64,000 bases of DNA from an uncultured bacterium. Its GTDB lineage: Bacteria > UBA8481. Shown piece by piece: positions 849 through 45,069 of the stretch. Position numbers and translations under genes: made by a program. The notes under the pieces were generated by a model. It was given only the letters and a program-made list of their open reading frames with translations, was not told the DNA's origin and did not search any database. Every line of letters begins with the position of its first letter. Position 1 is the first letter of the stretch. The stretch is taken from assembly GCA_964499705.1 (NCBI GenBank), contig CAZCME010000013.1, forward strand, positions 45,217-109,216. Direction: 5' to 3'.

Positions 849-2198
849 ATGGAAACCACCTACCAGCAGATCAGGAAACGGGACGGCTCGATCGTGCCGT
901 TCACGCCCATCCGGATCACCAACGCGATCTACAGGGCGGCCATCGCCGTCGGTGGACGCGATCGAACAACCGCGGAAAGCCTGACCGGGAAAGTCGTCGC
1001 CTATCTCCGCAGCCGGCACGCGGACGATATCCCGGCCGTGGAGATGGTCCAGGATGCGATCGAGAAGGTTCTCATCGAGAACGGCCACGCGAAGACGTCG
1101 AAGGCGTTCATCCTCTATCGCGACGAGCGGACCCGCAAGCGGCAGGGACGGATCGGCGACATGGCCGGACCGAACCAGCAGGGCGAATGCATTCCGTGGA
1201 AGAAGATCTGGAACATCCTCAACTGGGCCGTCGATCACCGCGTCGCGACCGTCGGGCAGCTGAACGAGCGGATCCTGGACGGTTCCTTCTTCGATCTCGT
1301 CAAGGAAAGCGAGGAAGCGTATTCGCTCGACATCGCCCGCGCCGCCGACGCCATCCTGAAGCGGCGCCATGAAGTGCGCGTCGTCATCGTCGCCGGCCCT
1401 TCCTCCTCGGGCAAGACGACGACGACCATCAAGATCGCGGAACATCTCCGCAACGAGGGTTTCGAGTTCGTGCCGTTCCACGTCGACAATTACTTCTTCA
1501 ACCTGGAGGACCATCCCAAGGATGAGTTCGGTGACTACGACTACGAGACACCGCAGGCCCTCGACCTTCCGCTCATCAACGATCATCTGAAGCGATTACT
1601 CGCGGGCGAGGGAGTCGACGTGCCCTATTTCAACTTCATGTCCGGCAAGCGGGAGGGATCTCACGAGCATCTCAAGATCAACGATCAGCAGATTCTGCTC
1701 ATCGATTCCCTGCATGGCCTCTACGGAGCCATGACCGAGGGAATACCCGTGACGGCGAAGTTCCGGCTCTATATCGAGACGCTTCTGCAGATGCGCGGGA
1801 CCGACGGAACATTCATTCGATGGACGGATCTGCGGCTCATCCGCCGCATGGTCCGCGATTCCCGGTCGCGGAACATGACGCCGACGAAGACTCTGGAGCA
1901 CTGGCACTATGTGCGCCGGTCGGAACTGGAGCATATCTGTCCGTTCGTCACGACCGTCGATTACGTTGTGAACGGCGCCCTGCCGTACGAGCTCCCCATC
2001 TGGGCCGCGCGCATGAGGGATAACTTCCAGAAATGGGCGAAAGAATACGAGGGAAATCATCACAAGACCGACGCCTTCCGCCGCGCCACCCGCGTCGCCA
2101 ACATGCTCGAATCCATAACCCCCTGGACCGATGAAACGATCGTCCCGGAAAATGCCCTGATGCGCGAATTCATAGGCGGCTCGTCGTACAAATACTAG
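849..2198 (+). CDS. ATP-cone domain fused to uridine kinase/phosphoribulokinase-like P-loop kinase
   Basis: ORF 849..2198. N-terminus (QQIRKRDGSIVPF...ITNAIYRA...AFILYRDER) resembles an ATP-cone; central Walker A VVIVAGPSSSGKTTTT and downstream HVDNYFF / YDYETPQALDL resemble uridine kinase family proteins. Confidence 0.7.
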   Translation: METTYQQIRKRDGSIVPFTPIRITNAIYRAAIAVGGRDRTTAESLTGKVVAYLRSRHADDIPAVEMVQDAIEKVLIENGHAKTSKAFILYRDERTRKRQGRIGDMAGPNQQGECIPWKKIWNILNWAVDHRVATVGQLNERILDGSFFDLVKESEEAYSLDIARAADAILKRRHEVRVVIVAGPSSSGKTTTTIKIAEHLRNEGFEFVPFHVDNYFFNLEDHPKDEFGDYDYETPQALDLPLINDHLKRLLAGEGVDVPYFNFMSGKREGSHEHLKINDQQILLIDSLHGLYGAMTEGIPVTAKFRLYIETLLQMRGTDGTFIRWTDLRLIRRMVRDSRSRNMTPTKTLEHWHYVRRSELEHICPFVTTVDYVVNGALPYELPIWAARMRDNFQKWAKEYEGNHHKTDAFRRATRVANMLESITPWTDETIVPENALMREFIGGSSYKY

Positions 2199-2200
2199 GG

Positions 2201-2228
2201 GGGGACATTCTCCAACATTCCAACATTG
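2201..2228 (-). repeat. 28-bp REP-like repeat, copy 1 (reverse orientation of CAATGTTGGAATGTTGGAGAATGTCCCC)
   Basis: Exact GGGGACATTCTCCAACATTCCAACATTG immediately after the stop of the kinase-like gene; inverted partner lies 67 bp downstream. Confidence 0.8.
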
Positions 2229-2295
2229 GCAATATTGAAGTTCACAATCCTTCCATGGAACTTTCCTTCGCAAAAGCACGTAACTCCTTCTGACA

Positions 2296-2323
2296 CAATG
2301 TTGGAATGTTGGAGAATGTCCCC
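2296..2323 (+). repeat. 28-bp REP-like repeat, copy 2 (CAATGTTGGAATGTTGGAGAATGTCCCC)
   Basis: Exact reverse complement of copy 1; together they form an inverted doublet with a 67-bp spacer (2229..2295). Confidence 0.8.
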
Positions 2324-2433
2324 TGTCTCCACTTCGCGACAGTCTGTTCGGATTCCAACGACACTAAAACTTACATAAACCAAGTTTGACCCATTGAAAT
2401 TACACCATTTGCGCGAATCCCATCCATGGCACA

Positions 2434-3423: not shown

Positions 3424-4866
3424 TCACGCCGCGTCCGGACTCTCCGACTCGACCGGAGCCCGCTCCACATCGATACGCAACACCCGCGTCGTCGTCTCAT
3501 GGATCCGGGTCCGCTCGTCCTGCTTCAGGCCGATGACCCAGAGGATTCCTTCCTCGTCGCACAGGATCGGCCAGCGGTCCCGTTCAAGGAGCGAAATCTT
3601 CTCGTCGATGAAGATATCGTGCAGCTTCTTGGATCCCTGCATGCCGAAGGGCCGGATGCGATCGCCCTCGCGGCGCGTCCGGACGACCAGTCCGCCGCGA
3701 ATCGCGGAGCGATCGAAGAAAGCCGAGTCGCGGAGCACGCCCTCGGAAACGACGCGGAGCGAGCGGGGGCGGAATTCCTTCACGCCCGGGCTGTGCGACG
3801 CAAGTGAACACGTCACACTCAGAGAAAGCGGCGCGATCCGCGTGAGACCGTTCTCCTCCACGGGGAATACACCTTTCACGAGCGGCGAGACCTCAGGTGG
3901 ATGACCGATGACGAACGTCCTGCGGAAACGGCCTTCGACGTAGGCGAATAATTCGCCGGCCACGCTGACGCGTTTTTCATCGGCAACGACCCCGGCGAGA
4001 AGTTCAAGGAGCTCATATCCCGGAGCGACGCCGAACTTGACGAGGACGAGCTGGAAGACCCTGGCCCGAAGCGCGGGATGCAATTGCCGCAGGGATTCCA
4101 GTTCCCGCTCCAGTCGGCCGCCCGCCTCCCGCCACTTCCCCAGCTCCTCCGCCGCATGCGCCTCCAGGTAATCGTCCTCCCCGCGGATGATCTCCGCGGT
4201 CCGGCAAAGCCCGTCGATCAACTGGGGATTGCCGTGCTCCATCAGGAACGGCAGCACCTGGTGGCGGATCCTGTTCCGGGCGAAGACGATTTCCGCGTTG
4301 GTCGGATCGTCTCGGTGCGACACGCCCTGCGCTTCCGCGTAGCGGATGATCTCCGCGCGGCGCACCGAGAGGAGCGGCCGGAGAATAAGGAGCCCTCCGG
4401 AATTCCGGACGGGCGGAATGCCGGCCAGGCCGCGGATTCCCGTTCCCCGCAGGAGGCGGAAGAGCACGGTCTCCGCCTGGTCATCGGCATGATGCGCGGT
4501 CACGACCGCATCGAGGGCAAGCTTCCGAGCGGCGCGCTCCAGAAAGGCATATCGCGCCTTCCGCGCCCATTCCTCCACGGATCCTTCCCGCGACTCGAGC
4601 GTTCTCTTCTCGGAATGAACTTCCAGGCCGCATTCCCGCGCCGCCTTCTCGACGAATTTCCTGTCTTCGTCGGATCCGGGCCGCAGGTCATGGTCGAAAT
4701 GGAGCACAACGGGGATGAACAAGGATCGGGAGGCGAGGCGCCGGACGACATGCAGGAGCGTCATCGAGTCGATGCCGCCGGAGACCGCCACGCCCAGGCG
4801 CGCCGGCTTTCCATCGGGCAGATGCTCCGCCAGAAACGCCTCCACGATCTCGACCATGCCCTTCAT
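3424..4866 (-). CDS. tilS: tRNA(Ile)-lysidine synthetase
   Basis: ORF 3424..4866; N-terminal PP-loop motif VAVSGGIDSM and HHADDQAETVLFRLLRG region typical of TilS. Confidence 0.85.
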   Translation of the reverse strand: MKGMVEIVEAFLAEHLPDGKPARLGVAVSGGIDSMTLLHVVRRLASRSLFIPVVLHFDHDLRPGSDEDRKFVEKAARECGLEVHSEKRTLESREGSVEEWARKARYAFLERAARKLALDAVVTAHHADDQAETVLFRLLRGTGIRGLAGIPPVRNSGGLLILRPLLSVRRAEIIRYAEAQGVSHRDDPTNAEIVFARNRIRHQVLPFLMEHGNPQLIDGLCRTAEIIRGEDDYLEAHAAEELGKWREAGGRLERELESLRQLHPALRARVFQLVLVKFGVAPGYELLELLAGVVADEKRVSVAGELFAYVEGRFRRTFVIGHPPEVSPLVKGVFPVEENGLTRIAPLSLSVTCSLASHSPGVKEFRPRSLRVVSEGVLRDSAFFDRSAIRGGLVVRTRREGDRIRPFGMQGSKKLHDIFIDEKISLLERDRWPILCDEEGILWVIGLKQDERTRIHETTTRVLRIDVERAPVESESPDAA

Positions 4867-8163: not shown

Positions 8164-11031
8164 CTATTGCGCCGTCACAAGGTAATCGCGAAGTGCCTGG
8201 AGCTGCTTTTCCTCGTCCGGCGTTCCGCCGTCGAGGTTGGCGGGCATCCGGACTCCGGGATAGAAGGCGGCCGGGTTGCGGATCCATTTAACGATCCAGT
8301 CCGCGCGGAGCCTCTTTCCGGCGAGCGCCAGGTCGGGAGCCCATGTGTTGGATCCGCTGAGCGGCGTCTTCGCGCCGATGATGTGGCACGTAGTCGCGCA
8401 TCCCAGGTCGTCGACCAGTTGTCGGCCTGCCGCGACTTCCGCGGAAGAGGGATCGGGATGGCGAAGTTCGCTGAGGATCATGGTCGGCGTTTCCACGGCG
8501 GCGAAATAGTAGACGAGCGTGTTCAGCTCCGCGTCCCTGAATCCGAACGACGGCATGCGTACATTCAGCCACGGCCGCGGTCTCGCCATCGCCGGATCAC
8601 GGATGAAGTCGTAGAGCCACTCCGCCCGGATCTTCTGGCCGGTGCTGATGAGATTCGGAGGATTGACGTTCGTGAGCCACGGAGCATCGAAAACATCCGA
8701 TTCGACGCCTTCGTATTTCATCACGGCTTCGCGTATAACGGGCCGGATCGAGCCGCCGCGTCCTTCGATGATATGGCAACCCTGGCAGTTGTATTCGCGG
8801 ACGAGCCGCTGGCCCTGTTCCACGACGAGGTTCTTCGGGGTTCTCGGGAACATCTTCTCCGCCTTCACGCTGGGCTTCACGAATCCGACGATGGCCGTCA
8901 CGACCGCGTCGATCTCGGTGTCGGAGAGATCGAAGTTCGGCATCCGGAGCTTATCCAGCGGCGCAAGAACCCGCTCACGGTCGAAGATCCTCGGCTCCTT
9001 CAGCTTCTGCGTGAACCAGTCGTAGTTGTTATGGCCGATGTCATGAATGTAGCCGAAATCGAGCTTGGAAACCGGCTTGGAACCTTCCTCCGTCAATTCG
9101 GTGCCGATCGGCATCGCGGTGTCGAATCCGGGGATCTCGTGGCAGCCGAAGCAGCCATACGTGCCTATCAGTTTCCGGCCGGTGAACTCGAGCTTCTGCG
9201 CCTGAGAACTCTTTTCGATCGTCTCTTTCGCCTGGGCGTTCGTCATGTTCTTCGCGAGAAACTCCAGCATGATTCCATTCAGGATCTTCTCATCGAGGGG
9301 AGGAATCTCCGTGTTGAACTCCTCGTTCCTGTTCTGCATCAGGTACGCCGTGACATCAGCCGCTTCCTGATCCGTCAGTCTCAGATCGGGCATCCTCGTA
9401 TTGGGCGAGAACGCATGAGGATTCCTGATCCAGTTGTAGACCCAGTCGGCGGAGGTCTTCGTCGCCAGTCCCGTCAGCTCCGGCCCCTGCATTCTCCGTA
9501 TCATGTCCGACGTCGTGTTCGTCCTTATGAAGGCCGATCGATCCTTGTCAAAGTGCGTCTTGTCTTCCTGCAGGTGGCATCCGTAGCAGCCAGTCGTCGC
9601 GAGGATCTTTTCGCCGCGGGCCGGATCGCCGGGCATCGCCATCGAAGCCATCGCATGCGTATCGCTGAACTGGAAGAGGTAGGCGACCATCGCGTGGATT
9701 TCCTGGCGGGATCGAGCCTTCTGTTCGTCGGAGCTGTTGTTCGACTGATCGAAGAACCGCGGCATCCACGTGTTATGGCGGAAGCTCTTCGGGTTCAGGA
9801 TCCACCGGTACGTCCAATCCTTGGACGTCTTCGCGGCGATCTTCCTCAGCGACGGGCCCGGCTTCGACCGGCCCAGGTAGCGGGAGATGTTATGGCAGCC
9901 GTAGCATCCGGCCTTCTCGATGACCTGGAGGCCCAGGTTCAGTTTCTCCGCGCCGCGCAGTTCCGTGGCGTGCGAATGACAGTTCAGGCATCCCGCTTCC
10001 GTGTACTTCGTCGGAAGCATCGGAGTCTCCCAATAGTGATAGAGATACCAGCCGTATTTCGCCTTCCATTCCTCTTCCTGCTCATGTGACGACGGCCTGT
10101 GAATCGACATCAGGAAGCTCGTGCCGCGTCCGCGGCCCAGGTGGCAGCTCGCGCAGCCGAACTCCTCGACCGGATGCGGGGAGGCGCTCGAAAGAAACAG
10201 ATCCAGCTTCGGATGCGTCTTGAAGGGCTGGGCATCTTCCGCGAATTCGGGCCTCATGAGGCCCTGGTGGCAGGTCTGGCACCGGTCGACGCTCGGGACG
10301 CGGAGAAAGTTCAGGTTGTCGGTGACGTCAGGAACGACGACTTGTTCGATCTTGTAGGACGGGTTGAGGAAATCGAGAAGCGGCATGTCGCGAATGGCGT
10401 TGCCGATCTTCGCGAGGAGGCTCATGTTCTCCGGATCCATGTTCGCCAGTTTCCTCTGGAGAACGGCGGCCTTCCTGGCCAGCGCGGCGGCGGAATCGTT
10501 CAGAGCGCGGATGGCGTCCTGCTTCTTCATCATCTCGGCGGAGGCGCTCTCCAGGTCCGTCGCGGCCTTCTCGTTCTTCAGGCGCAATGCTTCCATCTCG
10601 CCGAAGAGCTTGTCCATCTCCGCCTTCTGCTTCTGCCCCTCATGCCCGTGGCCGCGTTGGTTCTCGTAGCGATATTTCGCGGCTTCGTACTCCGATTTGC
10701 GGAACTGGTAATCCTGGTTCGCCTTGTCGCTGACGGCCTTCAATTCCGTGATGGTTTTCGCAAACTCCTGGCTCACCATCTTCCGGATTTCCAGGTCCGC
10801 CTCCACCTGAGCGACCGCGTCGACCGCGTTCTGCAGGTCGGCGCTGGAGAGGACATCGCGCGTCTTGGAGATATCGAGCTTCCTGAATTCGCGCTGAAAG
10901 TGTTTCCATTCGCGGTCGTAGTCGTCCACGAACATCCAGATGAACGTGGCGAACATGATGATGCTCGATATCGCGAAGACCCGGTTCACCCGGGACATCA
11001 CGTAATATCTCTGCTCGCCCTTCTCCGCCAC
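8164..11031 (-). CDS. Multihaem c-type cytochrome (about 8 haem-binding sites), bc-complex associated
   Basis: 955-aa ORF with CxxCH motifs CQTCH, CASCH, CLNCH, CYGCH (twice), CFGCH, CQGCH and one CxxxCH (CATTCH); N-terminal TM segment followed by a coiled-coil-like region. Confidence 0.8.
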   Translation of the reverse strand: MAEKGEQRYYVMSRVNRVFAISSIIMFATFIWMFVDDYDREWKHFQREFRKLDISKTRDVLSSADLQNAVDAVAQVEADLEIRKMVSQEFAKTITELKAVSDKANQDYQFRKSEYEAAKYRYENQRGHGHEGQKQKAEMDKLFGEMEALRLKNEKAATDLESASAEMMKKQDAIRALNDSAAALARKAAVLQRKLANMDPENMSLLAKIGNAIRDMPLLDFLNPSYKIEQVVVPDVTDNLNFLRVPSVDRCQTCHQGLMRPEFAEDAQPFKTHPKLDLFLSSASPHPVEEFGCASCHLGRGRGTSFLMSIHRPSSHEQEEEWKAKYGWYLYHYWETPMLPTKYTEAGCLNCHSHATELRGAEKLNLGLQVIEKAGCYGCHNISRYLGRSKPGPSLRKIAAKTSKDWTYRWILNPKSFRHNTWMPRFFDQSNNSSDEQKARSRQEIHAMVAYLFQFSDTHAMASMAMPGDPARGEKILATTGCYGCHLQEDKTHFDKDRSAFIRTNTTSDMIRRMQGPELTGLATKTSADWVYNWIRNPHAFSPNTRMPDLRLTDQEAADVTAYLMQNRNEEFNTEIPPLDEKILNGIMLEFLAKNMTNAQAKETIEKSSQAQKLEFTGRKLIGTYGCFGCHEIPGFDTAMPIGTELTEEGSKPVSKLDFGYIHDIGHNNYDWFTQKLKEPRIFDRERVLAPLDKLRMPNFDLSDTEIDAVVTAIVGFVKPSVKAEKMFPRTPKNLVVEQGQRLVREYNCQGCHIIEGRGGSIRPVIREAVMKYEGVESDVFDAPWLTNVNPPNLISTGQKIRAEWLYDFIRDPAMARPRPWLNVRMPSFGFRDAELNTLVYYFAAVETPTMILSELRHPDPSSAEVAAGRQLVDDLGCATTCHIIGAKTPLSGSNTWAPDLALAGKRLRADWIVKWIRNPAAFYPGVRMPANLDGGTPDEEKQLQALRDYLVTAQ

Positions 11032-11046
11032 GTTCCGTCTTCCTCT

Positions 11047-12162
11047 CTAAATGTTGAAGAAATACTCGGGGATCGCCACGAGGTATTTCAGGTTGAATGT
11101 CCAGCGCAGGTACATCTTGATCGGAATGAGGATCGCCCACAGGAGCATCACGATGAAGGTGCTGTAGCGGATCGGCCCCAGGCCGGCGTACATCTTCTTC
11201 AGCCAGGTCTTCGCCAGGAGAGGCGGCATCACCGCGAAATATCCTCCGACGAATAGAATGCCCCACATCTCCCGCAGGAGAATGTTCTTCGGCAATCCGA
11301 TGTTCAGGCCCTTCATGTAGATGTATTCGGACAGGTTGACGTTCGTCAGCGCTTCGAGCTTATGCAGGTCCCACGCCTCGAACGGGCCGAAGAAGTTCCA
11401 GTTCGGGCCGCGGAGAAATGTCCCGATGAAGATGAGGTAGACCCAGAGGATGAGCCAGCCGAACATGAAGAGCGAGATCGCAAGGCGCCGCTGCTTGTAG
11501 CTGTAATACCCGACGCCCTTTTCATTGTTGTCGATGAAGGGAATCGCGGCGATGCCTCCGAGGACAAGCGTCGGGAGGATGACGCCGGCGATCCAGGGAT
11601 CGAAATAGACGAGAAGCTCCTGGAGACCGAGGAAGTACCACGGGGCCTTGGCCGGATTGGGCGAGAGCGTCAAGTTCGCGGGTTCCTCCACGGGTGCCGG
11701 GAGATAGATCGACCAGACGATGAGAAACGCGGTGCAGAGAATAAGGGAGATGAACTCGATGTAGACGAGGTCCGGCCAGACAAGCACTTTATCCTTCGGA
11801 TCATGGATTTCGGTCGGCTTCATCCCGCTCGCGAGCTTCGCGTCGTTCTCCACGGCCTGCTTCATCGCGAGCCAGAGGAAGAAGTATGTCAGGAATGCGA
11901 GCCCCGCGATCGGCACGTTATCGGGCTTTGTCAGAATGAGGCTGCAGTTCTCGTCGGCCAGTCCAATGAGAAAGAAGAGCGTCATCAGGGCGAAGACCGT
12001 GACCGCGCCCTTGTTGGTCCAGAGGAACGGGATCTTCAGCCGTGCGTTCCACTTCTCGAACCAGTCGTTCGGCGGAAAGACGAAGAAGAGACCGCCCGCC
12101 AGGACTGTGAATGTAATGCGCGGGTCCGAGAGGAAGTTGACGAATTCCTTGAGGTAATGCAT
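11047..12162 (-). CDS. Cytochrome b C-terminal domain protein (subunit IV-like, split cytochrome b)
   Basis: 371-aa polytopic membrane ORF containing PWYFLGLQELL, which resembles the conserved PEWY region of cytochrome b C-terminal domains; start overlaps the stop of the cytochrome b N-terminal gene by 1 nt. Confidence 0.75.
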   Translation of the reverse strand: MHYLKEFVNFLSDPRITFTVLAGGLFFVFPPNDWFEKWNARLKIPFLWTNKGAVTVFALMTLFFLIGLADENCSLILTKPDNVPIAGLAFLTYFFLWLAMKQAVENDAKLASGMKPTEIHDPKDKVLVWPDLVYIEFISLILCTAFLIVWSIYLPAPVEEPANLTLSPNPAKAPWYFLGLQELLVYFDPWIAGVILPTLVLGGIAAIPFIDNNEKGVGYYSYKQRRLAISLFMFGWLILWVYLIFIGTFLRGPNWNFFGPFEAWDLHKLEALTNVNLSEYIYMKGLNIGLPKNILLREMWGILFVGGYFAVMPPLLAKTWLKKMYAGLGPIRYSTFIVMLLWAILIPIKMYLRWTFNLKYLVAIPEYFFNI

Positions 12163-32241: not shown

Positions 32242-32649
32242 TTGAGCAAGCCCTCGACCGTCCTCGCCGTCGACGCCGGCACGGTCCGGATCGGCTTGGC
32301 GATTTCCGACGAGACCGGCACGTTTGCATTTCCCCTCGAAGTCATCCCCGCAAAAAATGCGATTGCGCGAATCAAGGCGCTCTGCGAGGAGCGCACGGTG
32401 ACGCAGGTGATCGTGGGACTGCCGCTGACGATGAAGGGAGACATCGGCCCCGAAGCCGCGCGTGTGGAGAAGTTCATCCGGAAACTTCAGCGCGCTCTTC
32501 AACCCCTGCCCGTGACCGCCGTCGATGAACGGCTCAGTTCACTCGTGGCGGACCGTATTCTCGAATCCGGCAAGGGACACCCAAAGCGCGACGCCGTGGC
32601 GGCGGCGGTGATACTGGAGAGCTATCTGAAGACGATCAATGACAAATGA
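32242..32649 (+). CDS. ruvX: Putative pre-16S rRNA nuclease / Holliday junction resolvase-like protein (RuvX/YqgF)
   Basis: 135-aa ORF (TTG start in track) with VLAVDAGTVRIGLAISD... and VIVGLPLTMKGDIGPEA; canonical position downstream of alaS. Confidence 0.8.
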   Translation: MSKPSTVLAVDAGTVRIGLAISDETGTFAFPLEVIPAKNAIARIKALCEERTVTQVIVGLPLTMKGDIGPEAARVEKFIRKLQRALQPLPVTAVDERLSSLVADRILESGKGHPKRDAVAAAVILESYLKTINDK

Positions 32650-32719
32650 CGAATGAACAACGACTGATGAACAATTCCTGATTGTTCATCAGTCGTTGTT
32701 CATTCGTCATTTGTCATTG
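32637..32719. terminator. Perfect 39-bp inverted repeat with 5-nt loop; candidate bidirectional terminator
   Basis: Arms 32637..32675 and 32681..32719 are exact reverse complements (loop TCCTG). The arms contain the last codons and stops of convergent ruvX and asnB, so both proteins end in NDK. Confidence 0.5.
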
Positions 32720-34617
32720 GAACCCTGGTCCGCAAACTGACGGTGCCATAGCTCCAGCATCAGAAGCGCCCAGAGACGGAAGGCATTATTGCGGCGACCG
32801 GCCTTGTGGTCATCAATGAGGCGTTCGATGACTTCGCGCTTGAAGTAGCCGCGCGCGAGGGAACCCGAGTCCAGGAGGATCTCGCGAATATATCCGTGCA
32901 GCTCGCCCTGGAACCAATGCGAAAGCGGAACGCTGAAGCCCATCTTTCTTCGATAGAGAATCTCATACGGCAATATTCCGTGATGCGCTTCCTTCAAAAT
33001 TTTCTTCGACGAGAACGCTCCGACTTTCCACGTCCGCGGCAGGGAAGCGGCGAACTCCATGATCGACGTGTCGAGGAGAGGCGATCGGGTTTCGAGCGAG
33101 ACGGCCATGGAGGCGACATCGACCTTCACGAGAAGCGTATCCGGCAGGTACATGAGCGTATCGGAACGGAGAACGCGGTCGACGAGATCGGCCTTGCGGG
33201 GATTGTCCCAGCCGTCGGTCATGAGACGGAGGAGATAATCGTCGGCGGAGTGGTTGCCGAGCCGGGCGCGAAATTCGTCGGAGTACATCTGTTGCCGCGC
33301 CTCGGCGTCGAAGTATGCGAAGATGCTGAGATTGAACTTGTCCGGAGTGCATTGCGAGGCTCGCGCGAAGCGGCGGATCTTCCTCGCGAGCGATCGGTTT
33401 TGCACTCCCTCGGGAAGCCATGACGTCGCTTTTTCCGTGAGCGAGCGTATGCCGGAGGTCGTGAGGCTGGAATAAAGCCCGTGCATGAGGAGCGCGCGGT
33501 AGCGCTCGTAGCCACCGAAGTATTCGTCTCCCCCGTCGCCGTTCAACGCCACCGTGACGCGCTGGCGCGTCATGCGGCTGACGTAGTAGGTCGGCAGGGC
33601 GGACGAGTCGGCGTAGGGCTGGTCGTAGTGCCAGACGAGCTTCGGCAGGATCTCCATGGCGTCCGGTTCGACGATGAATTCCTCGTGCTGCGTGCCAAAC
33701 TTCTCCGCGACCATCCGGGCATACTGGGTCTCGTTGAAATCCCTGTTCGGAAATCCGATGGAAAACGTTTTGACCGGCGCGGAGGATACTTCCGCCATGG
33801 CGGAAACCACCGCCGAGGAATCGACGCCTCCGGAAAGAAACGCGCCGAGCGGAACGTCGGATATGAGCCGGGCTTTTGTGGCGTCGACGATCAATTCGCG
33901 TAGCCTGATTTTCGCGTCGTCGTACGAGAGATCGGTCTTCCGGACCCAATCCGCCTGCCAGTAGGTTTCGATCTTTGCGCTTTCGCCTGTCCAGACGAGT
34001 CGCGAAGCGGGAGGCAGGCGATGCACGCCATTGAAGATGGTTTTCGTTCCCGGAATCGACTGATATGTAAGATACAGATCGATCGACTCCGGATCGATTT
34101 CGCGCGGGCAGTTCGGAAGCGTCAGGAGCGCCTTGATCTCCGACGCGAAGTAGATCCCCTCGGCGTCCTCGAACCAGTACACCGGTTTTTTGCCCGCGCG
34201 ATCGCGCGCGATGAGGAGCGAGCGATCCCGCGTGTTCCAGATCGCGAACGCGAACATGCCCCTCAGTTTTTCCGGAACGCGCGCGCCGAGTTCCTCATAG
34301 AGATGAACGATCGCCTCCGTGTCGGAATGCGTCCGAAATCGATGACCCCTGGATTCCAGATCCGGCCGCAGCTCGAGAAAGTTGTATACCTCCCCGTTGA
34401 ACGTGATCCAGACCGATTCGTCCTCGTTGGACAAGGGTTGCCTGCCGCCCTCGAGATCGATGATGGAGAGCCGGCGATGTCCAAGCCCACAGCCTTCCAG
34501 CGCGACGTGCCCTTCCCCGTCGGGACCGCGATGGACCAGCGTATCGGTCATACGTTTGAGAACGGAAACGTCGGGCTTGCGCCCATCTCGATAAACAATT
34601 CCAGCTATGCCGCACAT
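32707..34617 (-). CDS. asnB: Asparagine synthase (glutamine-hydrolysing)
   Basis: ORF 32707..34647 trimmed to Met 34617 so the protein begins MCGIAGIV (catalytic Cys2); PP-loop SGGVDSS; the upstream 10 codons of the track ORF are encoded by a repeat copy. Confidence 0.85.
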   Translation of the reverse strand: MCGIAGIVYRDGRKPDVSVLKRMTDTLVHRGPDGEGHVALEGCGLGHRRLSIIDLEGGRQPLSNEDESVWITFNGEVYNFLELRPDLESRGHRFRTHSDTEAIVHLYEELGARVPEKLRGMFAFAIWNTRDRSLLIARDRAGKKPVYWFEDAEGIYFASEIKALLTLPNCPREIDPESIDLYLTYQSIPGTKTIFNGVHRLPPASRLVWTGESAKIETYWQADWVRKTDLSYDDAKIRLRELIVDATKARLISDVPLGAFLSGGVDSSAVVSAMAEVSSAPVKTFSIGFPNRDFNETQYARMVAEKFGTQHEEFIVEPDAMEILPKLVWHYDQPYADSSALPTYYVSRMTRQRVTVALNGDGGDEYFGGYERYRALLMHGLYSSLTTSGIRSLTEKATSWLPEGVQNRSLARKIRRFARASQCTPDKFNLSIFAYFDAEARQQMYSDEFRARLGNHSADDYLLRLMTDGWDNPRKADLVDRVLRSDTLMYLPDTLLVKVDVASMAVSLETRSPLLDTSIMEFAASLPRTWKVGAFSSKKILKEAHHGILPYEILYRRKMGFSVPLSHWFQGELHGYIREILLDSGSLARGYFKREVIERLIDDHKAGRRNNAFRLWALLMLELWHRQFADQGSNDK

Positions 34618-34629
34618 GGGGGAAGAATA

Positions 34630-34657
34630 GGGGACATTCTCCAACATTCCAACATTG
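34630..34657 (-). repeat. 28-bp REP-like repeat, copy 3
   Basis: Exact GGGGACATTCTCCAACATTCCAACATTG; on the minus strand it ends 12 nt upstream of the asnB ATG. Confidence 0.8.
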
Positions 34658-34826
34658 AGGATGAAGGAGTTATGGAATTCATTCCTAAAGGAATCATGAA
34701 AAGTTCATCATCATCTCGCGGGAAAATGCATCTGGGATATTTTTCAAGGCTGGAATCGCTGAAAATAGGGTCCAACACGCGAATGCGTCTGAGTTTTCAT
34801 CGTTTCAACCCCGATAAAATCCAGAC

Positions 34827-35849
34827 CTAAACGACTAACTCCTGCTGCGTCAATGTTGGAATGTTGGAGAATGTCCCCCTGATTGCTTCGGCAAGGGCTC
34901 CTTTGCGCCTGTCTTTTCGCATGCGAGAAACGATCATCGAATAATAACCATTCGGGTGGCGATCGCCGTCCTCATGCTGGATACGGTCGTAGGTCCAGCG
35001 GGCCAGCTCATGCGCAATGTAGATCGTGAGTTCGCGGTGCATCGCCTCGATCGACGACCATGCCTGGCGGCGCATTTCGGATGTGGCCATGACGAACCGG
35101 TCGGCCATCTGCTGAAGATCGCTCCAGGACCACGACACGGCGTCGCGGTCCATCGTGCGTCGCTTTCTGGTTTCTTCGAACCGCTGACGGCGTTCCGTCT
35201 GGAGTTCGATACGCTTTCGAAATAGATGCGAGCTCATGAAACGGCCGTTATGGCCCTCGCGAAACAGTGTTTCGTTGGATTCTGCGTTGAGTTCATTGAA
35301 CCATCTGTCCAATACGCCCAACTGTTTAACATGATCGAAGGAGGAGATGTTCTTTCCGAAGAGTTGCTCGGCGAGCAGATGCCGGTCGACGCGATTTCTC
35401 TGGGTTCCCATGCCCAGCATTTCCCGCGCACTGCACCAAGGATAAAGAAGCGGATCGCGTACGAAACCGGCACGGACTGGATTGAGGATGATGTAGGCGA
35501 CGACGGTTTCAAAGTAGGACTCCGTCTCGATGACGAGCGACTTCGATCTGCCCTGGAAGAGGTGGCCGGTCCGGTCGTGGCGTCGGTTGAGTTCCTGAGA
35601 GGCGCGCGTCAAAAATCGCCGCAGGAATTCCGAAATGTCGCCGCCGGGCGTTCGAAGGCAGAAATGAAAATGATTCGGCATGAGACAATAGGCATACGTG
35701 ACGACGCGAAACATCTTTGCCGACTCGAAATAGAGATCGAGAAATCGACGGTAATCGGACTCGTGCTGGAAGAACGGGTGCTTGTCGACGAAGCGATTGA
35801 GGACGTGGTAGACGGCGTCCTTGTAGGCGATGCGTGGACCTCTGGACAT
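34827..35849 (-). CDS. IS200-like Y1 (HUH) transposase, REP-associated tyrosine transposase (RAYT)-like
   Basis: 340-aa ORF; HUH motif CLMPNHFHFCL and tyrosine motif VAYIILNPVRAGFV align by eye with the PEHMHCIW and YIYINPVK regions of E. coli RayT; N-terminal AVYHVLNR. C-terminal codons read through a repeat copy. Confidence 0.75.
   Translation of the reverse strand: MSRGPRIAYKDAVYHVLNRFVDKHPFFQHESDYRRFLDLYFESAKMFRVVTYAYCLMPNHFHFCLRTPGGDISEFLRRFLTRASQELNRRHDRTGHLFQGRSKSLVIETESYFETVVAYIILNPVRAGFVRDPLLYPWCSAREMLGMGTQRNRVDRHLLAEQLFGKNISSFDHVKQLGVLDRWFNELNAESNETLFREGHNGRFMSSHLFRKRIELQTERRQRFEETRKRRTMDRDAVSWSWSDLQQMADRFVMATSEMRRQAWSSIEAMHRELTIYIAHELARWTYDRIQHEDGDRHPNGYYSMIVSRMRKDRRKGALAEAIRGTFSNIPTLTQQELVV
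34851..34878 (+). repeat. 28-bp REP-like repeat, copy 4
   Basis: Exact CAATGTTGGAATGTTGGAGAATGTCCCC; inverted partner of copy 3 with a 193-bp spacer; lies inside the last ~17 codons of the transposase ORF. Confidence 0.8.
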
Positions 35850-35860
35850 GGCGATGTCTC

Positions 35861-36202
35861 CTATCGGCTTGCGGTGCGGTCGAAATAGTCGCGGACGATG
35901 TTACGGAAGCGTGTGGATCGATGAGGAAGTTCGGCGAGCCATCGCATGTATGTCGGGTCGCGCCGGCTGATCTCCTCGAGCGACCGGCCGCGATGCTTGC
36001 CGAACGCGATTCGATGCGACCTGCCGTGGGGAATCAAACCGGATCGCTTCCGTTCGAAGTTATCGCTGCAGGCGGCTGAATAGACCTCGTCGGCCTTCCG
36101 GAAGGCTTCGTCTTCCGATAGGCCGATACTTCTGAAAATTCCGAATGCACAGGCGCGATCCTGCTCCGGGCTGGTCACTTTCCGCCGATCCTGTTTCGCC
36201 AT
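35861..36202 (-). CDS. Small protein with exodeoxyribonuclease X C-terminal-like (DUF3820-like) motif
   Basis: ORF 35861..36373 trimmed to Met 36202 (MAKQDRRKVTSP...); IAFGKHRGRSLEEISRRDPTYMRWLAEL resembles the FGKYKG...DP.YL.WL motif of that family (recalled, not searched). Confidence 0.45.
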   Translation of the reverse strand: MAKQDRRKVTSPEQDRACAFGIFRSIGLSEDEAFRKADEVYSAACSDNFERKRSGLIPHGRSHRIAFGKHRGRSLEEISRRDPTYMRWLAELPHRSTRFRNIVRDYFDRTASR

Positions 36203-36286
36203 TGTGGTCTCCTTTCGTGATTGAGTGTCATACAGAGCAGAAGTTGTGCCGGCAGAAGTGCTTATTTTCCAGCAAGAGCATATCCG

Positions 36287-36332
36287 GAAAAGTGTCGAAT
36301 CCTGGACACATGTCCAGAATTCGACACTTTTC
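36287..36332. promoter_or_regulatory. 46-bp imperfect dyad symmetry, candidate operator
   Basis: GAAAAGTGTCGAAT-CCTGGACA-CA-TGTCCAGA-ATTCGACACTTTTC; 14-bp outer arms perfect, inner arms 7 of 8; located ~85 bp upstream of the small gene preceding the transposase. Confidence 0.3.
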
Positions 36333-36551
36333 ACGCACAGGATTCTCAGGATCAACAGGATGAAAACCGGCAAATCATATATTTTGAACGTTCATCCTAT
36401 CCTGTGGATCCTGCTCAATATTGAAGCGAAAATAATATTTGCAGTGGCTATAGAGCTCGGGTATTGACTACGGGGACAGATATTTCTTGGATTGGAGCGC
36501 AGCCAGGATTTTGACTGCCGGCTGCAAAAATGTGTTCTATGATGAAAATGG

Positions 36552-37496
36552 ATGAAAATGGGCCGTCCAATCACTTTTCAGTTGTTGATTGGATCTATTC
36601 TTTTACTTTTTGCCGACGAAGGTCCCGCCGGAATCTGCCTTCTCTATTTCAGTCAGAACATCGCTACTTTTGGTCGAATTGCGTTTCATTCACGATCCAG
36701 ACGAATGATCGCGCTCGGCCTCATTCTTATTTTGGTTCAGATATTTTTTTGCATGAAACTTTTCTTTGCTCTCACGCTAGACACATTCGAGTTGCTTCTT
36801 CGCAACAACTTTATTCCTGCCGTTTTCGTTTTCTTCCTCGAAGGTGCGACAGTCGATGAGGCAATGGCGAAGCGCGCCGGCTTTTGGATCTTTCTAATTA
36901 ACTGGGCGATTCTCTCGGCCGGTATGATTGCGTTTGCTCGACTAAAAGCTGAGCACCACCTTCAATTCGCTATCATTGCGTTGGTAGCTCTCTGCAAAGG
37001 ACTGTCGCAACTGGCGCCAACATTGCGTGAAAACCGCAAGCGAACTCCGTTTGGGCACGCGGCATACGGGGTACTCGTTCTGATAATGCTATTCGGTTTC
37101 TATCACACAATTGGAAGCGAGCGTCCATCTGTTGATTACGCGGGCGCGCTTGAACGTGCATTAACGACAGGCGATTCAGAACAAGCGATTGCGCTTTTGC
37201 AATTAACCAATCCTTCCGGGCAAATCGTGGTCGCCCACCAGGTCGACGGCACACCTGCAATCGAGCTCGCGCTGCAATCTCAGTTGCCGCAGGTTCGCAA
37301 AGCGGCAATTAGAACGTATGAGGTCTGGATGATCAACGCCGTCGATCGGGATCCATCCGATCGTGATGACCTTGAACGTCGCTACAAATCTCACATGACC
37401 CCGCTACTGTCCGATCCTGTATCAAGAATTCAAGAACTGGCGAGGGAAGCATATGAAAATCCAAAAGGCTATTCGGGATGGAGAAGCCCGTTCTAA
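36552..37496 (+). CDS. Hypothetical membrane protein with C-terminal helical-repeat region
   Basis: 314-aa ORF in an AT-richer stretch; several hydrophobic helices then a soluble C-terminal part (ALLQLTNPSGQIVVAHQVDGTPAIELALQSQLPQVRKAAIRTYEV); start uncertain. Confidence 0.45.
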   Translation: MKMGRPITFQLLIGSILLLFADEGPAGICLLYFSQNIATFGRIAFHSRSRRMIALGLILILVQIFFCMKLFFALTLDTFELLLRNNFIPAVFVFFLEGATVDEAMAKRAGFWIFLINWAILSAGMIAFARLKAEHHLQFAIIALVALCKGLSQLAPTLRENRKRTPFGHAAYGVLVLIMLFGFYHTIGSERPSVDYAGALERALTTGDSEQAIALLQLTNPSGQIVVAHQVDGTPAIELALQSQLPQVRKAAIRTYEVWMINAVDRDPSDRDDLERRYKSHMTPLLSDPVSRIQELAREAYENPKGYSGWRSPF

Positions 37497-37627
37497 TTTT
37501 CGTGACTGTGAAAGGAGATATTCTCTACATTCCTACATTTAAATAAATGAGTTGCAGAAGCGTCATTCCGGCGAATACAAAATTTGCATTTGCTCTGAAC
37601 AACTGCCTTCTCTAACTCCATCATCCT

Positions 37628-37655
37628 CAATGTTGGAATGTTGGAGAATGTCCCC
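37628..37655 (+). repeat. 28-bp REP-like repeat, copy 5
   Basis: Exact CAATGTTGGAATGTTGGAGAATGTCCCC ending 14 nt upstream of the STAS gene ATG. Confidence 0.8.
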
Positions 37656-37669
37656 CTATACTCCCTCTC

Positions 37670-38035
37670 ATGGAATTCGATCGCATACCGGGGGACACCG
37701 TCACTCGCTTCATTCTCTCAGGCTCCATGGAGACGGGGCGGTTCGAGCGGTTTCGCTTCGAGGCCAAGGATGCCGTCATCCCGCAGTCGCCCCACCTGAT
37801 GCTCGATGTGTCCGGCGTCGACTTCATCGATTCGTGCGGGATCGGGACGATGATCGAGCTCTTCAAGCACACGAAACTCCACGGCGGGGAGCTCATCATC
37901 GCGGGAATGCAGGAGCACCTCGTCAAGCTCTTCCAGATGCTGAAGCTCGATACGTTCTTCACCATGGTGCCCGACTTATCCGCCGGAGAAGCTCTGCTGG
38001 CGAAGATTCGCCGCAGGGATCAGGGCGTGTCATGA
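37670..38035 (+). CDS. STAS-domain protein (anti-sigma-factor antagonist-like)
   Basis: 121-aa ORF; LMLDVSGVDFIDSCGIGTMIELFKHTKLHGGELIIAGMQEHLVKLFQMLKLDTFF is a SpoIIAA/STAS pattern. Confidence 0.75.
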   Translation: MEFDRIPGDTVTRFILSGSMETGRFERFRFEAKDAVIPQSPHLMLDVSGVDFIDSCGIGTMIELFKHTKLHGGELIIAGMQEHLVKLFQMLKLDTFFTMVPDLSAGEALLAKIRRRDQGVS

Positions 38036-39477
38036 CGCCGGAGAACGACAAGGCTCCGGCGGAATCGGTTTTGCCCGGGTCCGCGTCCCCGAAAACCGCT
38101 CAGCTCGAATCGATCTTCTCCCAGCTCGACAAGATCCAGAAGCAGGTTTCACTGACGAGGCACGAGCGGCCGATGACGGAGATGTTCTTCGAAGTGCGCG
38201 AGCGGAAGTCGGTCCTCTTCGCCAACATATCCCGCGCCGTTCTGAAAAGCCTTTCCAGCCACGATCGTATGATGACAATGATCCGCAGCTCCATGTCGCG
38301 GGAGGAAAAATCGCGCGAATTGAAGGCGAGTTCCGCGGTCATTCTTCAGGATGTACTCTCCGCACTGGCAGCATCGCTGACGACGCGCGAGAAGGAACTC
38401 GTCCTCCTGGAGATCATCGACGAGGTCCTCGGCCTGGGCCCCATCGAGCAGCTGATCCGGGACCGGGAGATCGGGGAGATCATGATCAACGGGCCGGACT
38501 TCATTTTCATCGAGCGGCGCGGCAAGATCGAGCTTACTCCGCTGAAATTCCAGGATACCGAGCACCTCATGAAGACGGTGGAGAAGATCCTCTCGCCGGT
38601 GGGCCGCCGCGTGAACGAGTCGACTCCCTGTGTCGACGCGCGCCTGGCGGACGGCTCGCGCGTCCACGTCGCCATCGCTCCGGTCGCCCTGAACGGCCCT
38701 CTCGTGACGATCCGGAAATTCCCGGAGCGCGCATTGACGCTCGACGACTTGATCGACGCGGGCACGCTCTCTCCGGCCATGGCGGATTTCCTGAAATGCT
38801 GCGTGGAAGGACAGTTGAATATTCTCGTGTCCGGAGGAACCGGCAGCGGAAAAACCACGCTCTTGAATGTGCTCGGCATGTTCATCCCGAGCGGAGAGCG
38901 GATCGTCGTCATCGAGGATTCGGCGGAACTGCAGATCCACCGGATGCACGTCAACGTCGCGCGACTGGAATCCAAGCTGGCCAACATGGAAGGGCGGGGC
39001 GAGATCCCGATCCGCGAATTATTGAGGAACGCGCTCAGGATGCGGCCAGACAGGATCGTCATCGGCGAGGTACGCGGAGGCGAAGCGTTCGAGATGCTGC
39101 AGGCGATGAACACCGGGCATGACGGCTCTCTTTCCACGGCGCACGCGAATTCGCCGATGGACATGATCCACAGGCTGGAAGGGATGTGCCTGATGGCGGG
39201 GCTCGACCTTCCGATTCCTGTCATCCGGCGGATGATCGCGGGAGGCCTCAACCTCATCATCCAACAGAACCGCCTGAAGGATGGAACTCGCCGAATGGTG
39301 GAAATCTCCGAGGTTGCCGGCATGGAGGACGGTCACGTCAAACTCCAGTCGCTCTGGAAATTCCGTTCGACCGGAACCGACGCGCGGGGAAGAATCGCGG
39401 GAGCGTTCGATCGATCGGCTCACCAGCCCAAGTGTCTCGACAAGCTCGTCTCGGCGGCGACGGAACTGAACCTGTAG
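38032..39477 (+). CDS. CpaF/TadA/VirB11-family secretion ATPase, orphan
   Basis: ATG 38032 overlaps the STAS stop (ATGA); Walker A VSGGTGSGKTTLLN, Walker B/Asp box IVVIEDSAEL, His box GHDGSLSTAHANS. The upstream 160 codons of track ORF 37552..39477 are out-of-frame read-through. Confidence 0.8.
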   Translation: MTPENDKAPAESVLPGSASPKTAQLESIFSQLDKIQKQVSLTRHERPMTEMFFEVRERKSVLFANISRAVLKSLSSHDRMMTMIRSSMSREEKSRELKASSAVILQDVLSALAASLTTREKELVLLEIIDEVLGLGPIEQLIRDREIGEIMINGPDFIFIERRGKIELTPLKFQDTEHLMKTVEKILSPVGRRVNESTPCVDARLADGSRVHVAIAPVALNGPLVTIRKFPERALTLDDLIDAGTLSPAMADFLKCCVEGQLNILVSGGTGSGKTTLLNVLGMFIPSGERIVVIEDSAELQIHRMHVNVARLESKLANMEGRGEIPIRELLRNALRMRPDRIVIGEVRGGEAFEMLQAMNTGHDGSLSTAHANSPMDMIHRLEGMCLMAGLDLPIPVIRRMIAGGLNLIIQQNRLKDGTRRMVEISEVAGMEDGHVKLQSLWKFRSTGTDARGRIAGAFDRSAHQPKCLDKLVSAATELNL

Positions 39478-45040: not shown

Positions 45041-45069
45041 GGGGAAATTCTATGTTGGAGAATGTCCCC
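45041..45069 (+). repeat. Degenerate hairpin copy of the 28-bp repeat family, copy 6
   Basis: GGGGAAATTCT-ATGTTGG-AGAATGTCCCC: the right half matches the family consensus (ATGTTGGAGAATGTCCCC), the left arm is its near-complement. Confidence 0.6.

Follow-up and report, generated by a model that had tools for sequence, protein, structure and literature searches.

The locus lies in a window of 64 kb (the whole stretch of DNA that was analysed), in which a long inverted repeat doublet (doublet B) is placed between the start of the asnB gene and the 3' end of a transposase gene, both on the minus strand. Further copies of the same repeat were found elsewhere in the window. The features referred to below are the following:

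2198-2324, doublet A; arms 2201-2228 (+) and 2281-2323 (-), spacer of about 52 nt
32707-34617 (-), asnB (glutamine-hydrolysing asparagine synthase), start MCGIAG at 34617
34630-34672 (+), left arm of doublet B, GGGGACATTCTCCAACATTCCAACATTGAGGATGAAGGAGTTA; tip at 34630, A at 34629
34673-34835, spacer of doublet B, 163 nt; 44-47% G+C against about 60% in the flanks
34836-34878 (-), right arm of doublet B; tip at 34878; read as transposase codons 323-337
34827-35849 (-), Y1 (HUH) tyrosine transposase of the TIRYT type, 340 aa
37613-37655 (-), solo copy C; 42/43 nt identical to the left arm of doublet B
37633-37662 (+), promoter-like hybrid site; a weak match, to the consensus only
45041-45069, mini-doublet, 29 nt with two repeat tips: GGGGAAATTCT, loop atgttgg, AGAATGTCCCC

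The repeat unit and its copies in the window

A sequence-only reading of this DNA had described an inverted repeat doublet at 34630-34878, and its presence was confirmed. Each of the two arms (34630-34672 and 34836-34878) has a length of 43 nt; they are 91% complementary and 163 nt apart, and the 193-nt spacer given in that reading is the correct distance between the invariant 28-nt cores. This core, GGGGACATTCTCCAACATTCCAACATTG, occurred five times in the window and was absent from 100 shuffles. A search with the 29-mer core, in which one mismatch at most was allowed, gave five matches, at positions 2201 (+), 2323 (-), 34630 (+), 34878 (-) and 37655 (-). The sequence was identical, with no indels at doublet B, in three public assemblies made independently for the same groundwater population, which indicates that the doublet is not an assembly artefact.

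In the 43-nt unit, a tip (A-GGGGACA) is followed by a tandem pair of 8-nt direct repeats (CCAACATT twice) and by an inner GGAGTTA box, which in one relative is located just 5' of the transposase start codon. An A stands before every tip and lengthens the inverted repeat by a single base; the G runs are preceded by ATA, CA, TA, ACA and CTA. At four intergenic sites, the window carries the family as two full dimers, a mini-dimer and a solo copy. The spacers of the dimers measure 163, about 52 and 7 nt and are unrelated, while the cores are 100% identical; the spacer of doublet B has no similarity to anything else within the window.

Doublet A begins at the TAG stop codon of an ATP-cone/PRK gene (849-2198) and is situated between convergent genes. 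The solo copy C is found 1.8 kb from the transposase ATG, in the upstream orientation relative to that gene, and its tip is located 14 nt before the start codon of a STAS gene at 37670. The mini-doublet constitutes a sixth, truncated copy with an 11-bp stem that includes one mismatch; it lies upstream of infC, 3 nt past the TAG stop codon of the preceding gene. Three of the repeat sites begin no more than 3 nt from the stop codon of the upstream gene. Doublet A is flanked by ..ACTA and TGTC.., and doublet B by ..AATA and (C)TGAT... The right flanks of A and B being TG and not TA, a TA-duplicating (IS630-like) MITE was rejected as a candidate. No direct repeat indicative of a target-site duplication was visible in the flanks of the repeat copies, which fits an element of the Y1 type and not one of the DDE type.

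Four repeat sites were thus counted in about 76 kb, and no further copies were detected in the 12 kb beyond the window ends. Exact 22-mers of the repeat were absent from the public genome, metagenome and viral contig collections that were scanned. No presence/absence polymorphism was observed, the assemblies of the same population (L084-L090) being identical at all sites; an apparent indel near 53051 turned out to be an N-run in a scaffold. An empty site for doublet A was sought among 80 metagenomic relatives of the ATP-cone/PRK gene, none of which was syntenic with hpt, and no such site was found; neither comparison gave evidence of mobility.

Gene starts next to the repeat

The ATG of asnB (34615-34617, minus strand) is located 12 nt from the left-arm tip of doublet B, as had been claimed in the sequence-only reading. 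The longest asnB ORF spans positions 32707-34647, and the additional segment (34618-34647) begins at an ATG inside the repeat and adds the peptide MLENVPYSSP. Class II amidotransferases need a Cys as the first residue after removal of the Met. Since the extension would destroy this N-terminal catalytic Cys, and the product contains GATase_6/7 and Asn_synthase domains, the earlier opinion that it is spurious was borne out. The public gene call for asnB uses the 646-aa form.

Attention had also been drawn to a 52-codon ORF in the spacer, with the same first codons as the STAS gene. The detail is accurate: the ORF (34672-34830, plus strand) starts with ATGGAATTC, like the STAS gene at 37670, and this start lies 2 nt after an AAGGAG motif. 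The significance attached to it was not supported, as the ORF is not called by the public gene caller and lacks homologues in the 83 related loci. Two other candidates for passengers that travel with TIRYT genes (the ExoX-like_C gene and a 312-aa ORF) did not give any tblastn match in these 83 loci either, and the 173-aa neighbour in L001 is unrelated. The sequence ATGGAATTC was observed three times in the window versus 0.83 expected, and three occurrences were reached in 5 of 100 shuffles. In doublet B it is found on the inner side of the repeat and at the STAS gene on the outer side; therefore, these are not homologous positions. Both the 52-codon ORF and the MEF start that it shares with the STAS gene seem to be due to chance, and the ORF is probably non-coding.

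The transposase and the repeats of its homologues

Residues 11-120 of the 340-aa transposase match Y1_Tnp (PF01797) with an E value of 2.4e-9, and the protein contains the HUH motif (H60-F-H62) and a Tyr at the catalytic position (Tyr119). The family alignment of 23 homologues shows no variation at N59, H60, F61, H62 and Y119. Among the NCBIfam models, the best match is that of the REP-associated tyrosine transposase (REP_Tyr_transpos, NF047646), with 69.3 bits over residues 6-139 of 340 (the curated cut-off is 80 bits), and homologues of the protein are labelled "REP element-mobilizing transposase RayT" by JGI. A Candidatus Hydrogenedentota MAG encodes a protein identical to the transposase. 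The C-terminal region of the transposase appears to resemble domain IV of DnaA, and residues about 242-297 align with the PF08299 (Bac_DnaA_C) segment of homologue P0070. The Pfam model Bac_DnaA_C did not match the transposase directly and matched one of the 23 subfamily members at E 0.04, so that the subfamily, whose members are about 330 aa long and share the motif FVD[RK]HPFF, is connected to this domain only indirectly, via more distant homologues.

On its upstream side, an ExoX-like_C gene ends 11 nt before the transposase ATG, and in the window there is no repeat directly upstream of this ATG. The gene is enclosed by a single inverted pair, copy C (37655) and the left arm of doublet B (34630), which are 3 kb apart and have two unrelated genes inside. 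Neither a second copy of the transposase nor a pseudogene was detected in the window, where the tail encoded by the repeat matches only itself.

A different arrangement was observed in the homologues. Tight flanking inverted repeats were present at 62 of the approximately 77 assessable homologous loci of other organisms (75 from genomes, plus L001 and L003 from metagenomes). The close relatives are all bracketed except L004, the bracket of L008 being present though missed by the script. Among the 62 bracketed loci, 50 have tips that match the relaxed motif GGGWSR, and 26 have the exact motif GGGGWSAS. In L003, whose protein is 52% identical to that of the window, the arms are located at 9947-9993 and 11013-11059 (GGGGGACAGTCTGCAAATTTGCAACATT..AAGGAGTTAGAC), and the repeat is identical to the window unit at 31 of 43 positions in an ungapped comparison counted manually, position by position. 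Repeats built in this way, with a GGGG-W-CA tip and, behind it, two direct repeats that have a period of 8 nt, were found in L005, L006, L007, L008, L009 and L010. The tips of L003 (GGGGACAG) and L008 (GGGGACAC) match GGGGWSAS at 8/8 positions, and that of the window (GGGGACAT) at 7/8. Across the window and the relatives, the inverted repeat ends measure 28-47 nt. For one subfamily, a clear repeat architecture emerges from the comparison, with the GGGG-W-CA tip and two 8-nt direct repeats, the sequence of the latter changing with the protein, and it provides a concrete substrate for a first biochemical test of a TIRYT.

These loci also bear on the 3' end of the window gene. Its last 17 codons and the stop codon come from doublet B, in agreement with the roughly 17 codons proposed earlier: the ORF ends ...RGTFSNIPTLTQQELVV (C-terminal peptide ...GTFSNIPTLTQQELVV), with 15 codons in the right arm and the last two codons plus the stop in the spacer. 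The arm is in the upstream (left) repeat orientation relative to the gene, and its outer tip is fused to the gene. The idea that the repeat may supply 3' coding sequence holds insofar as the tail is read from the dimer; however, the tail is not conserved, and an overlap at the 3' end is common in the family, the downstream repeat covering the end of the transposase gene at 24 of the 62 loci. After the conserved ...ALAEAI, the tails of the family are unconserved and comprise about 6-23 residues, and the orthologues do not share the C-terminus of the window protein; the observation that the sequence-only reading had named as refuting it was thus not made. This overlap is a consequence of the compact architecture of the element and not a special coding contribution.

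Origin of the doublets

The TIRYT/TIRtron class was defined with the tip motif GGGGWSAS, and its repeat families occur as singles, dimers and groups, with repeats that overlap gene ends; no TIRYT has been biochemically shown to bind, cleave or move its repeats (Di Nocera et al. 2013, PMC3733652). Most TIRYTs belong to subclass 2.1, which is characterized by a C-terminal Bac_DnaA_C/HTH region and the lack of REPs (Quentin et al. 2018, PMC6006769). The system studied here shares with TIRtrons a RAYT-like protein of the Y1/HUH type, the C-terminal region of which is possibly DnaA_C/HTH-like, the long non-palindromic terminal inverted repeats with a tip of the GGGGWSAS type, which may overlap the 3' end of the gene, and the dispersal of the repeats as singles, dimers and groups, and the canonical tight bracket is present in close homologues. 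Unlike in a canonical TIRtron, the window gene lacks an adjacent upstream repeat, and a dimer arm, in the "left-end" orientation, is what is fused to its 3' end; further differences are the 7/8 tip, the host, a Candidatus Hydrogenedentota MAG, and the indirect connection of the subfamily to Bac_DnaA_C. The catalytic domain (PF01797, HUH plus Tyr) is the same as in the IS200/IS605 elements IS608 and ISDra2, and single-strand chemistry is presumed.

Elements of the IS200/IS605 family have no terminal inverted repeats; the subterminal hairpins of their left end differ from those of the right end, and insertion takes place 3' of a specific tetra- or pentanucleotide. In contrast, the ends of the window element and of its relatives are inverted repeats. 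Because homologous repeats bracket the gene in the relatives and because of the match to the published TIRYT/TIRtron class, the doublets are interpreted as non-autonomous terminal-repeat dimers, and doublet B as a small, non-coding relic of a mobile element. As judged from the sequence comparison, the repeat is probably the terminal inverted repeat of the neighbouring transposase itself, a point missed in the sequence-only reading, as were the dimeric nature of the doublet and the commonness of the 3'-end overlap. We estimate at roughly 80% the probability that doublet B is a non-autonomous dimer of a TIRtron terminal repeat, derived from a 43-nt unit spread through intergenic DNA, with the coding overlaps as by-products. 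The neighbouring transposase presumably moves the doublets, and their overlap with coding sequence is mostly incidental. The element class is already known, and the Hydrogenedentota example is an addition to this little-studied class.

One alternative is that the copies are kept mainly as host cis-elements, that is, as hairpin terminators, insulators or stabilisers, as promoter or leader of asnB and the STAS gene, and as the last codons of the transposase; a supply of leader and coding sequence to the neighbouring genes had been proposed in the sequence-only reading. The hairpins are indeed very stable: compared with shuffles, z values of -6.7 and -9.3 were obtained for doublet B folded as RNA, and of -8.2 and -4.0 for doublet A and the mini-doublet, respectively, folded as DNA. 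Position is also in favour of this alternative, given that three sites begin no further than 3 nt from the stop codon of the preceding gene, that the transposase tail is read from the arm, and that the asnB and STAS start codons have no Shine-Dalgarno sequence and are preceded by repeat tips at 12 and 14 nt. At the STAS gene, the hybrid site consists of TTGGAA inside copy C and, after 18 nt, TATACT across the tip and the flank, ending 7 nt before the ATG; on the asnB side, TTGGAA-17-TATTCT, read from the sequence, ends 6 nt before the ATG. However, the scans revealed neither a promoter nor a terminator-like U tract in or beside doublets A and B, and the single promoter match at copy C is within the chance expectation of 0.6 per region. 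The Rfam search (the whole window at the gathering threshold plus a permissive scan of the locus) gave nothing relevant. Moreover, identical cores with unrelated spacers point to recent spread and not to selection on structure, and with the extension asnB would lose its N-terminal catalytic Cys. Host cis-elements are therefore an improbable main explanation of the copies, and this alternative is compatible with the TIRtron origin as a secondary effect, not as a replacement.

It is very unlikely that the system is a classical REP/REPIN-RAYT one, in which the unit would be a REP, the doublet a REPIN and the gene a domesticated single-copy RAYT. The resemblance to such systems (Bertels & Rainey 2011; Nunvar et al. 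2010) comprises a single Y1/RAYT-like gene, with homologues that JGI calls RayT, several inverted doublets scattered in intergenic DNA, which form long hairpins without target duplication, and a doublet directly flanking the gene, as REPINs flank RAYTs (PMC3116915, PMC5581495). The single-unit folding test led to the rejection of the REP interpretation. The DNA folds of the single 51-nt units reached -4.6, -1.2 and -5.9 kcal/mol (z -0.57, +0.94 and -1.65), no better than shuffles, and since single units do not fold on their own, the repeats are not REPs. In addition, the unit is not a palindrome and has no GTAG tag, a GTAG being found only near the mini-copy, 3 nt off, where it belongs to the stop-codon context of the upstream gene. 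The spacers are heterogeneous (7 to 163 nt), and the protein, at 69 bits versus the NCBIfam RAYT cut-off of 80, is twice as long as RAYTs, with a C-terminal extension of roughly 200 aa that these lack. The tight brackets of the relatives give them the appearance of mobile, IS-like and not domesticated units.

That the doublets are ordinary MITEs of a DDE insertion sequence located elsewhere in the genome, beside a tyrosine transposase by chance, is hardly credible: they do resemble RUP, NEMIS/Correia and ERIC in their small size (125-249 bp), 43-nt terminal inverted repeats, lack of coding capacity, intergenic position near gene ends, G+C content lower than that of the flanks and strong hairpins if transcribed, but they lack a target-site duplication, the window contains neither a further transposase fragment nor a DDE gene with such ends, their ends match a tyrosine (HUH) transposase unit, and homologous repeats bracket orthologous Y1 genes in several organisms, which chance adjacency cannot explain.

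Under the preferred interpretation, that of TIRtron terminal-repeat dimers, the element would be an IS-like unit consisting of a RAYT-related Y1/HUH gene (TIRYT) bracketed by long inverted repeats with tips of the GGGGWSAS type. The 43-nt unit would have spread through intergenic DNA as non-autonomous dimers and one solo copy, and the dimer at 34630-34878, one of these copies, immediately adjoins the 3' end of the only TIRYT gene, whose unconserved tail and stop codon are now read from it. By analogy with TnpA of IS608 and TnpA-REP of E. coli, the dimer may fold as a long hairpin in single-stranded DNA, with its tips brought together; the putative C-terminal helix-turn-helix region would recognise the tandem 8-nt repeats, the Y1 domain would cut and rejoin single-stranded DNA at the tips, and the dimer would be excised and re-inserted without target-site duplication.

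A bolder version of the TIRtron interpretation appears unlikely to us. According to it, the TIRYT gene of this candidate-phylum genome lost its tight end repeats and became a resident single-copy gene that services repeat dimers in trans, a REPIN-RAYT-like partnership based on non-palindromic units outside Proteobacteria; besides, the outward repeat ends (TTGGAA as -35 box, with a TAT.CT tip box) would act as hybrid promoters giving nearly leaderless asnB and STAS transcripts.

The significance of the repeat lies mostly in annotation, where it shows the transposase and the repeat family to be one system. The ATGs inside the repeat extend ORF calls outwards, and the compact architecture lays the repeat over the 3' end of the transposase gene. 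In this way, the repeat explains the mis-called asnB start, several spurious ORFs that begin at these ATGs, and the odd C-terminus of the transposase.

The repeat family in the window

The inverted repeat between asnB and the transposase gene (dimer B, 34630-34878) is formed by two 43-nt arms (34630-34672 and 34836-34878) with 91% complementarity and a spacing of 163 nt, the outermost 28-29 nt of each arm being invariant (GGGGACATTCTCCAACATTCCAACATTG). Searching the 64-kb window with up to one mismatch allowed gave five copies of the core GGGGACATTCTCCAACATTCCAACATTG, located at 2201(+), 2323(-), 34630(+), 34878(-) and 37655(-), and 100 dinucleotide-preserving shuffles gave none (0/100). A more sensitive scan detected a sixth site, a mini-palindrome in which an 11-nt tip (GGGGAAATTCT) faces an inverted 18-nt tip segment across a 7-nt loop.

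Repeat copies in the window
2198-2324: dimer A, ~125 bp
34630-34878: dimer B, 249 bp
37613-37655: solo copy C, upstream of the STAS gene, 42/43 nt the same as the left arm of B
45041-45069: mini-dimer, 29 nt

In assemblies made independently from the same groundwater population, the dimer B region was reproduced free of indels. A short contig of a replicate sample agrees with the window up to 2784 and then departs from it (L087 2992-3509 against the window from 2785 onward), just downstream of dimer A; it is a strain variant or else chimeric.

Single 51-nt units folded no better than shuffles (z -0.57, +0.94 and -1.65), whereas the dimers clearly did (z -8.2 for A, -4.0 for the mini-dimer, and -6.7 and -9.3 for B as RNA). 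Long hairpins can therefore be formed by the dimers, but not by single units. Since single units do not fold in this way and no GTAG tag was found at the repeat units, their identity as REPs was rejected and they are terminal inverted repeats. The doublets are therefore repeat dimers and not strict REPINs, although they function similarly in outline.

The transposase and the repeats around its homologues

The transposase ORF (34827-35849, minus strand, 340 aa) is identical in sequence to a recorded protein of a Candidatus Hydrogenedentota MAG, and its top NCBIfam model was the REP-associated tyrosine transposase, with 69 bits vs a cut-off of 80. Residues 11-120 match Pfam Y1_Tnp (IS200-like); the HUH histidines H60 and H62 and Tyr119 are invariant among 22 homologues of equal length (36-56% identity); and Pfam Bac_DnaA_C, present in distant homologues aligned over nearly the full length, lies opposite residues ~242-297. 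The protein is therefore a Y1/HUH enzyme, predicted to carry a fused HTH region resembling DnaA domain IV.

The DNA surrounding transposase homologues was fetched and the flanking inverted repeats were compared with the window unit. At locus L003, whose protein is 52% identical, the gene (10001-10987) lies inside 47-nt inverted repeats (9947-9993 and 11013-11059). These repeats (GGGGGACAGTCTGCAAATTTGCAACATT...AAGGAGTTAGAC) align ungapped with the window unit, with 31/43 bases identical when counted position by position. The identities cover the tip, tandem motif and inner GGAGTTA box, the last of which is located in L003 8-13 nt upstream of the transposase ATG. Brackets as tight as this one were observed at L001/L002, L005, L006, L007, L008, L009 and L010. 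The aligned repeats follow a common plan, a tip GGGG-W-CA and then two direct repeats of 8-nt period, the sequence of which varies from protein to protein.

Direct repeats in three loci
Window: CCAACATT, twice
L008: GACACA..GACACA
L005: CTACTTT.CTACTTT

Of ~77 related loci that could be assessed, 75 in genomes plus L001 and L003 in metagenomes, 62 had a flanking inverted repeat, with a GGGWSR tip in 50/62 and the exact GGGGWSAS in 26/62. These comparisons tie the repeat family to the TIRYT gene, both physically and in evolution. Such units have been described as TIRtrons and their RAYT-like tyrosine transposases as TIRYTs; the long inverted repeats on either side of the gene are unrelated to REPs and in many cases share GGGGWSAS. 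The repeat families are moderately abundant and "organized as REPs in dimers or clusters"; the repeats may overlap the 5' or 3' end of the gene (Di Nocera et al. 2013, PMC3733652). Of 26 TIRYTs, 20 were placed by Quentin et al. 2018 (PMC6006769) in subclass 2.1, a group with Bac_DnaA_C or HTH domains at the C-terminus and without REPs in the vicinity. The window feature belongs to this known TIRtron/TIRYT class, and its host and repeat sequence are new. A DDE-type MITE is unlikely, because no target-site duplication was found flanking the window repeats and because Y1 genes of several unrelated organisms lie between homologous repeats.

Two nested terminal-repeat copies are located on each side of the transposase gene in L008 (3872-3940 and 4982-5043), so grouped repeats are also present in other subfamily members. 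In L009 the inner part of the terminal repeat (3842-3860) reads TTATCCACA GAG TTATCCA, giving one DnaA box that fits the consensus perfectly and another that is partial, in a family whose C-terminal region resembles DnaA domain IV. A short 224-aa Y1 transposase of a Planctomycetota MAG (L083) has a terminal repeat (521-541) with the tip GGGGACATTCT, which equals the window tip over 11 nt, and with an unrelated inner part.

Gene ends at dimer B

No repeat is present beside the ATG of the window transposase gene, on whose upstream side two ORFs are located.

35861-36202, minus strand: ExoX-like_C gene, 113 aa, PF20600 motif, ending 11 nt before the transposase start codon
36558-37496, plus strand: orphan ORF, 312 aa, membrane-like, no match in Pfam or NCBIfam

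Given the 11-nt separation, the ExoX-like_C and transposase genes look co-transcribed. The closest copy in "upstream" orientation is C, 1.8 kb from the transposase gene and past a low-GC stretch (36200-37650; 0.43-0.55 vs ~0.60) that contains the orphan ORF and could be foreign DNA. In 83 other loci, TIRYT genes were not accompanied by either ORF. At the 3' end, the left arm of B is oriented as expected for a downstream repeat, and the right arm touches the gene in the "wrong" orientation, its outer tip adjoining codon 323. This is most economically read as a repeat dimer that now occupies the place where the tail, stop and downstream repeat of the gene itself once stood, after insertion and/or recombination between repeat copies.

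The sequence-only reading had suggested that the repeat may supply 3' coding sequence or 5' leader elements to neighbouring genes. The last 17 codons of the transposase do lie inside dimer B; however, the downstream repeat runs over the last codons or stop of the gene in 24/62 related loci, and conservation in the family alignment stops at ...ALAEAI (residue 322), the tails beyond (~6-23 residues) not being shared among orthologues. With conservation ending at residue 322, the tail swap is unlikely to have a functional effect. In L001, GGGACATTCCTCACACAACCC (2255-2279) encodes the tail of P0002, the closest homologue (...QGTFLTQP); this sequence resembles the window tip in the same position and orientation. 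This locus today uses another terminal repeat (GGGTCACACCCC...), and the tip-like tail may be a relic of an earlier arrangement.

On the asnB side, the 12-nt gap between the tip and the MCGIAG start was correctly placed, and the MLENVPYSSP extension of the longest ORF is indeed spurious, since the repeat read outward encodes an ATG start (ATG TTG GAG AAT GTC CCC) and an ORF finder may begin at MLENVP. This start arises at asnB and again at 37638, and public gene calls give asnB as the 646-aa form. Class II amidotransferases require Cys as first residue; hence, from established knowledge and the detected domains, asnB truly starts with MCGIAG at 34617. Annotation correction, together with the well-defined repeat architecture, is the main practical value of the dimer B finding. 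Spurious long ORFs also start in or cross copy C (37552-39477 and 37638-37799; ...MLECWRMSP..., MLENVP...), overlapping, in different frames, the genuine genes for the STAS protein and the secretion ATPase.

The 52-codon spacer ORF exists, with its start only 2 nt beyond an AAGGAG motif, but it is absent from the public gene calls and no homologue was found in related loci. The start that it was said to share with the STAS gene, ATGGAATTC, was found at both 34672 and 37670, but on the inner side of the repeat in the first case and on the outer side in the second; the window has three occurrences vs 0.83 expected, and at least three occurrences were reached in 5/100 shuffles, so the sharing is regarded as chance. 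Overall, the earlier observation was confirmed and its interpretation partly supported.

Proposed mechanism and neighbouring elements

On the model of IS608 TnpA and E. coli TnpA-REP (PMC3479197, with general background), the Y1 domain would cut and rejoin single-stranded DNA at the A/GGGG tips, with a 5'-phosphotyrosine as intermediate. The HTH region at the C-terminus may recognise both 8-nt direct repeats, which would explain why the repeat sequence changes with the protein at fixed positions. The dimer would fold in single-stranded DNA, bringing the two tips together for excision and re-insertion. The well-defined repeat architecture offers a substrate for the biochemical test of a TIRYT.

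Secondary host effects (hairpins at gene ends, an outward -35-like TTGGAA) are possible but unsupported: promoter and terminator scans of the repeat sites gave results at chance level. TTGGAA-18-TATACT terminates 7 nt before the STAS ATG, and the counterpart before asnB was under the promoter-scan threshold.

A perfect inverted repeat with 38-nt arms and a 5-nt loop (32638-32718) is located between the convergent ruvX and asnB genes, each arm giving the final codons (...NDK + stop) of one of them. It occurs once in the window, is AT-rich with an internal periodicity of ~7 nt, and could act as a terminator in both directions or represent some other small element.
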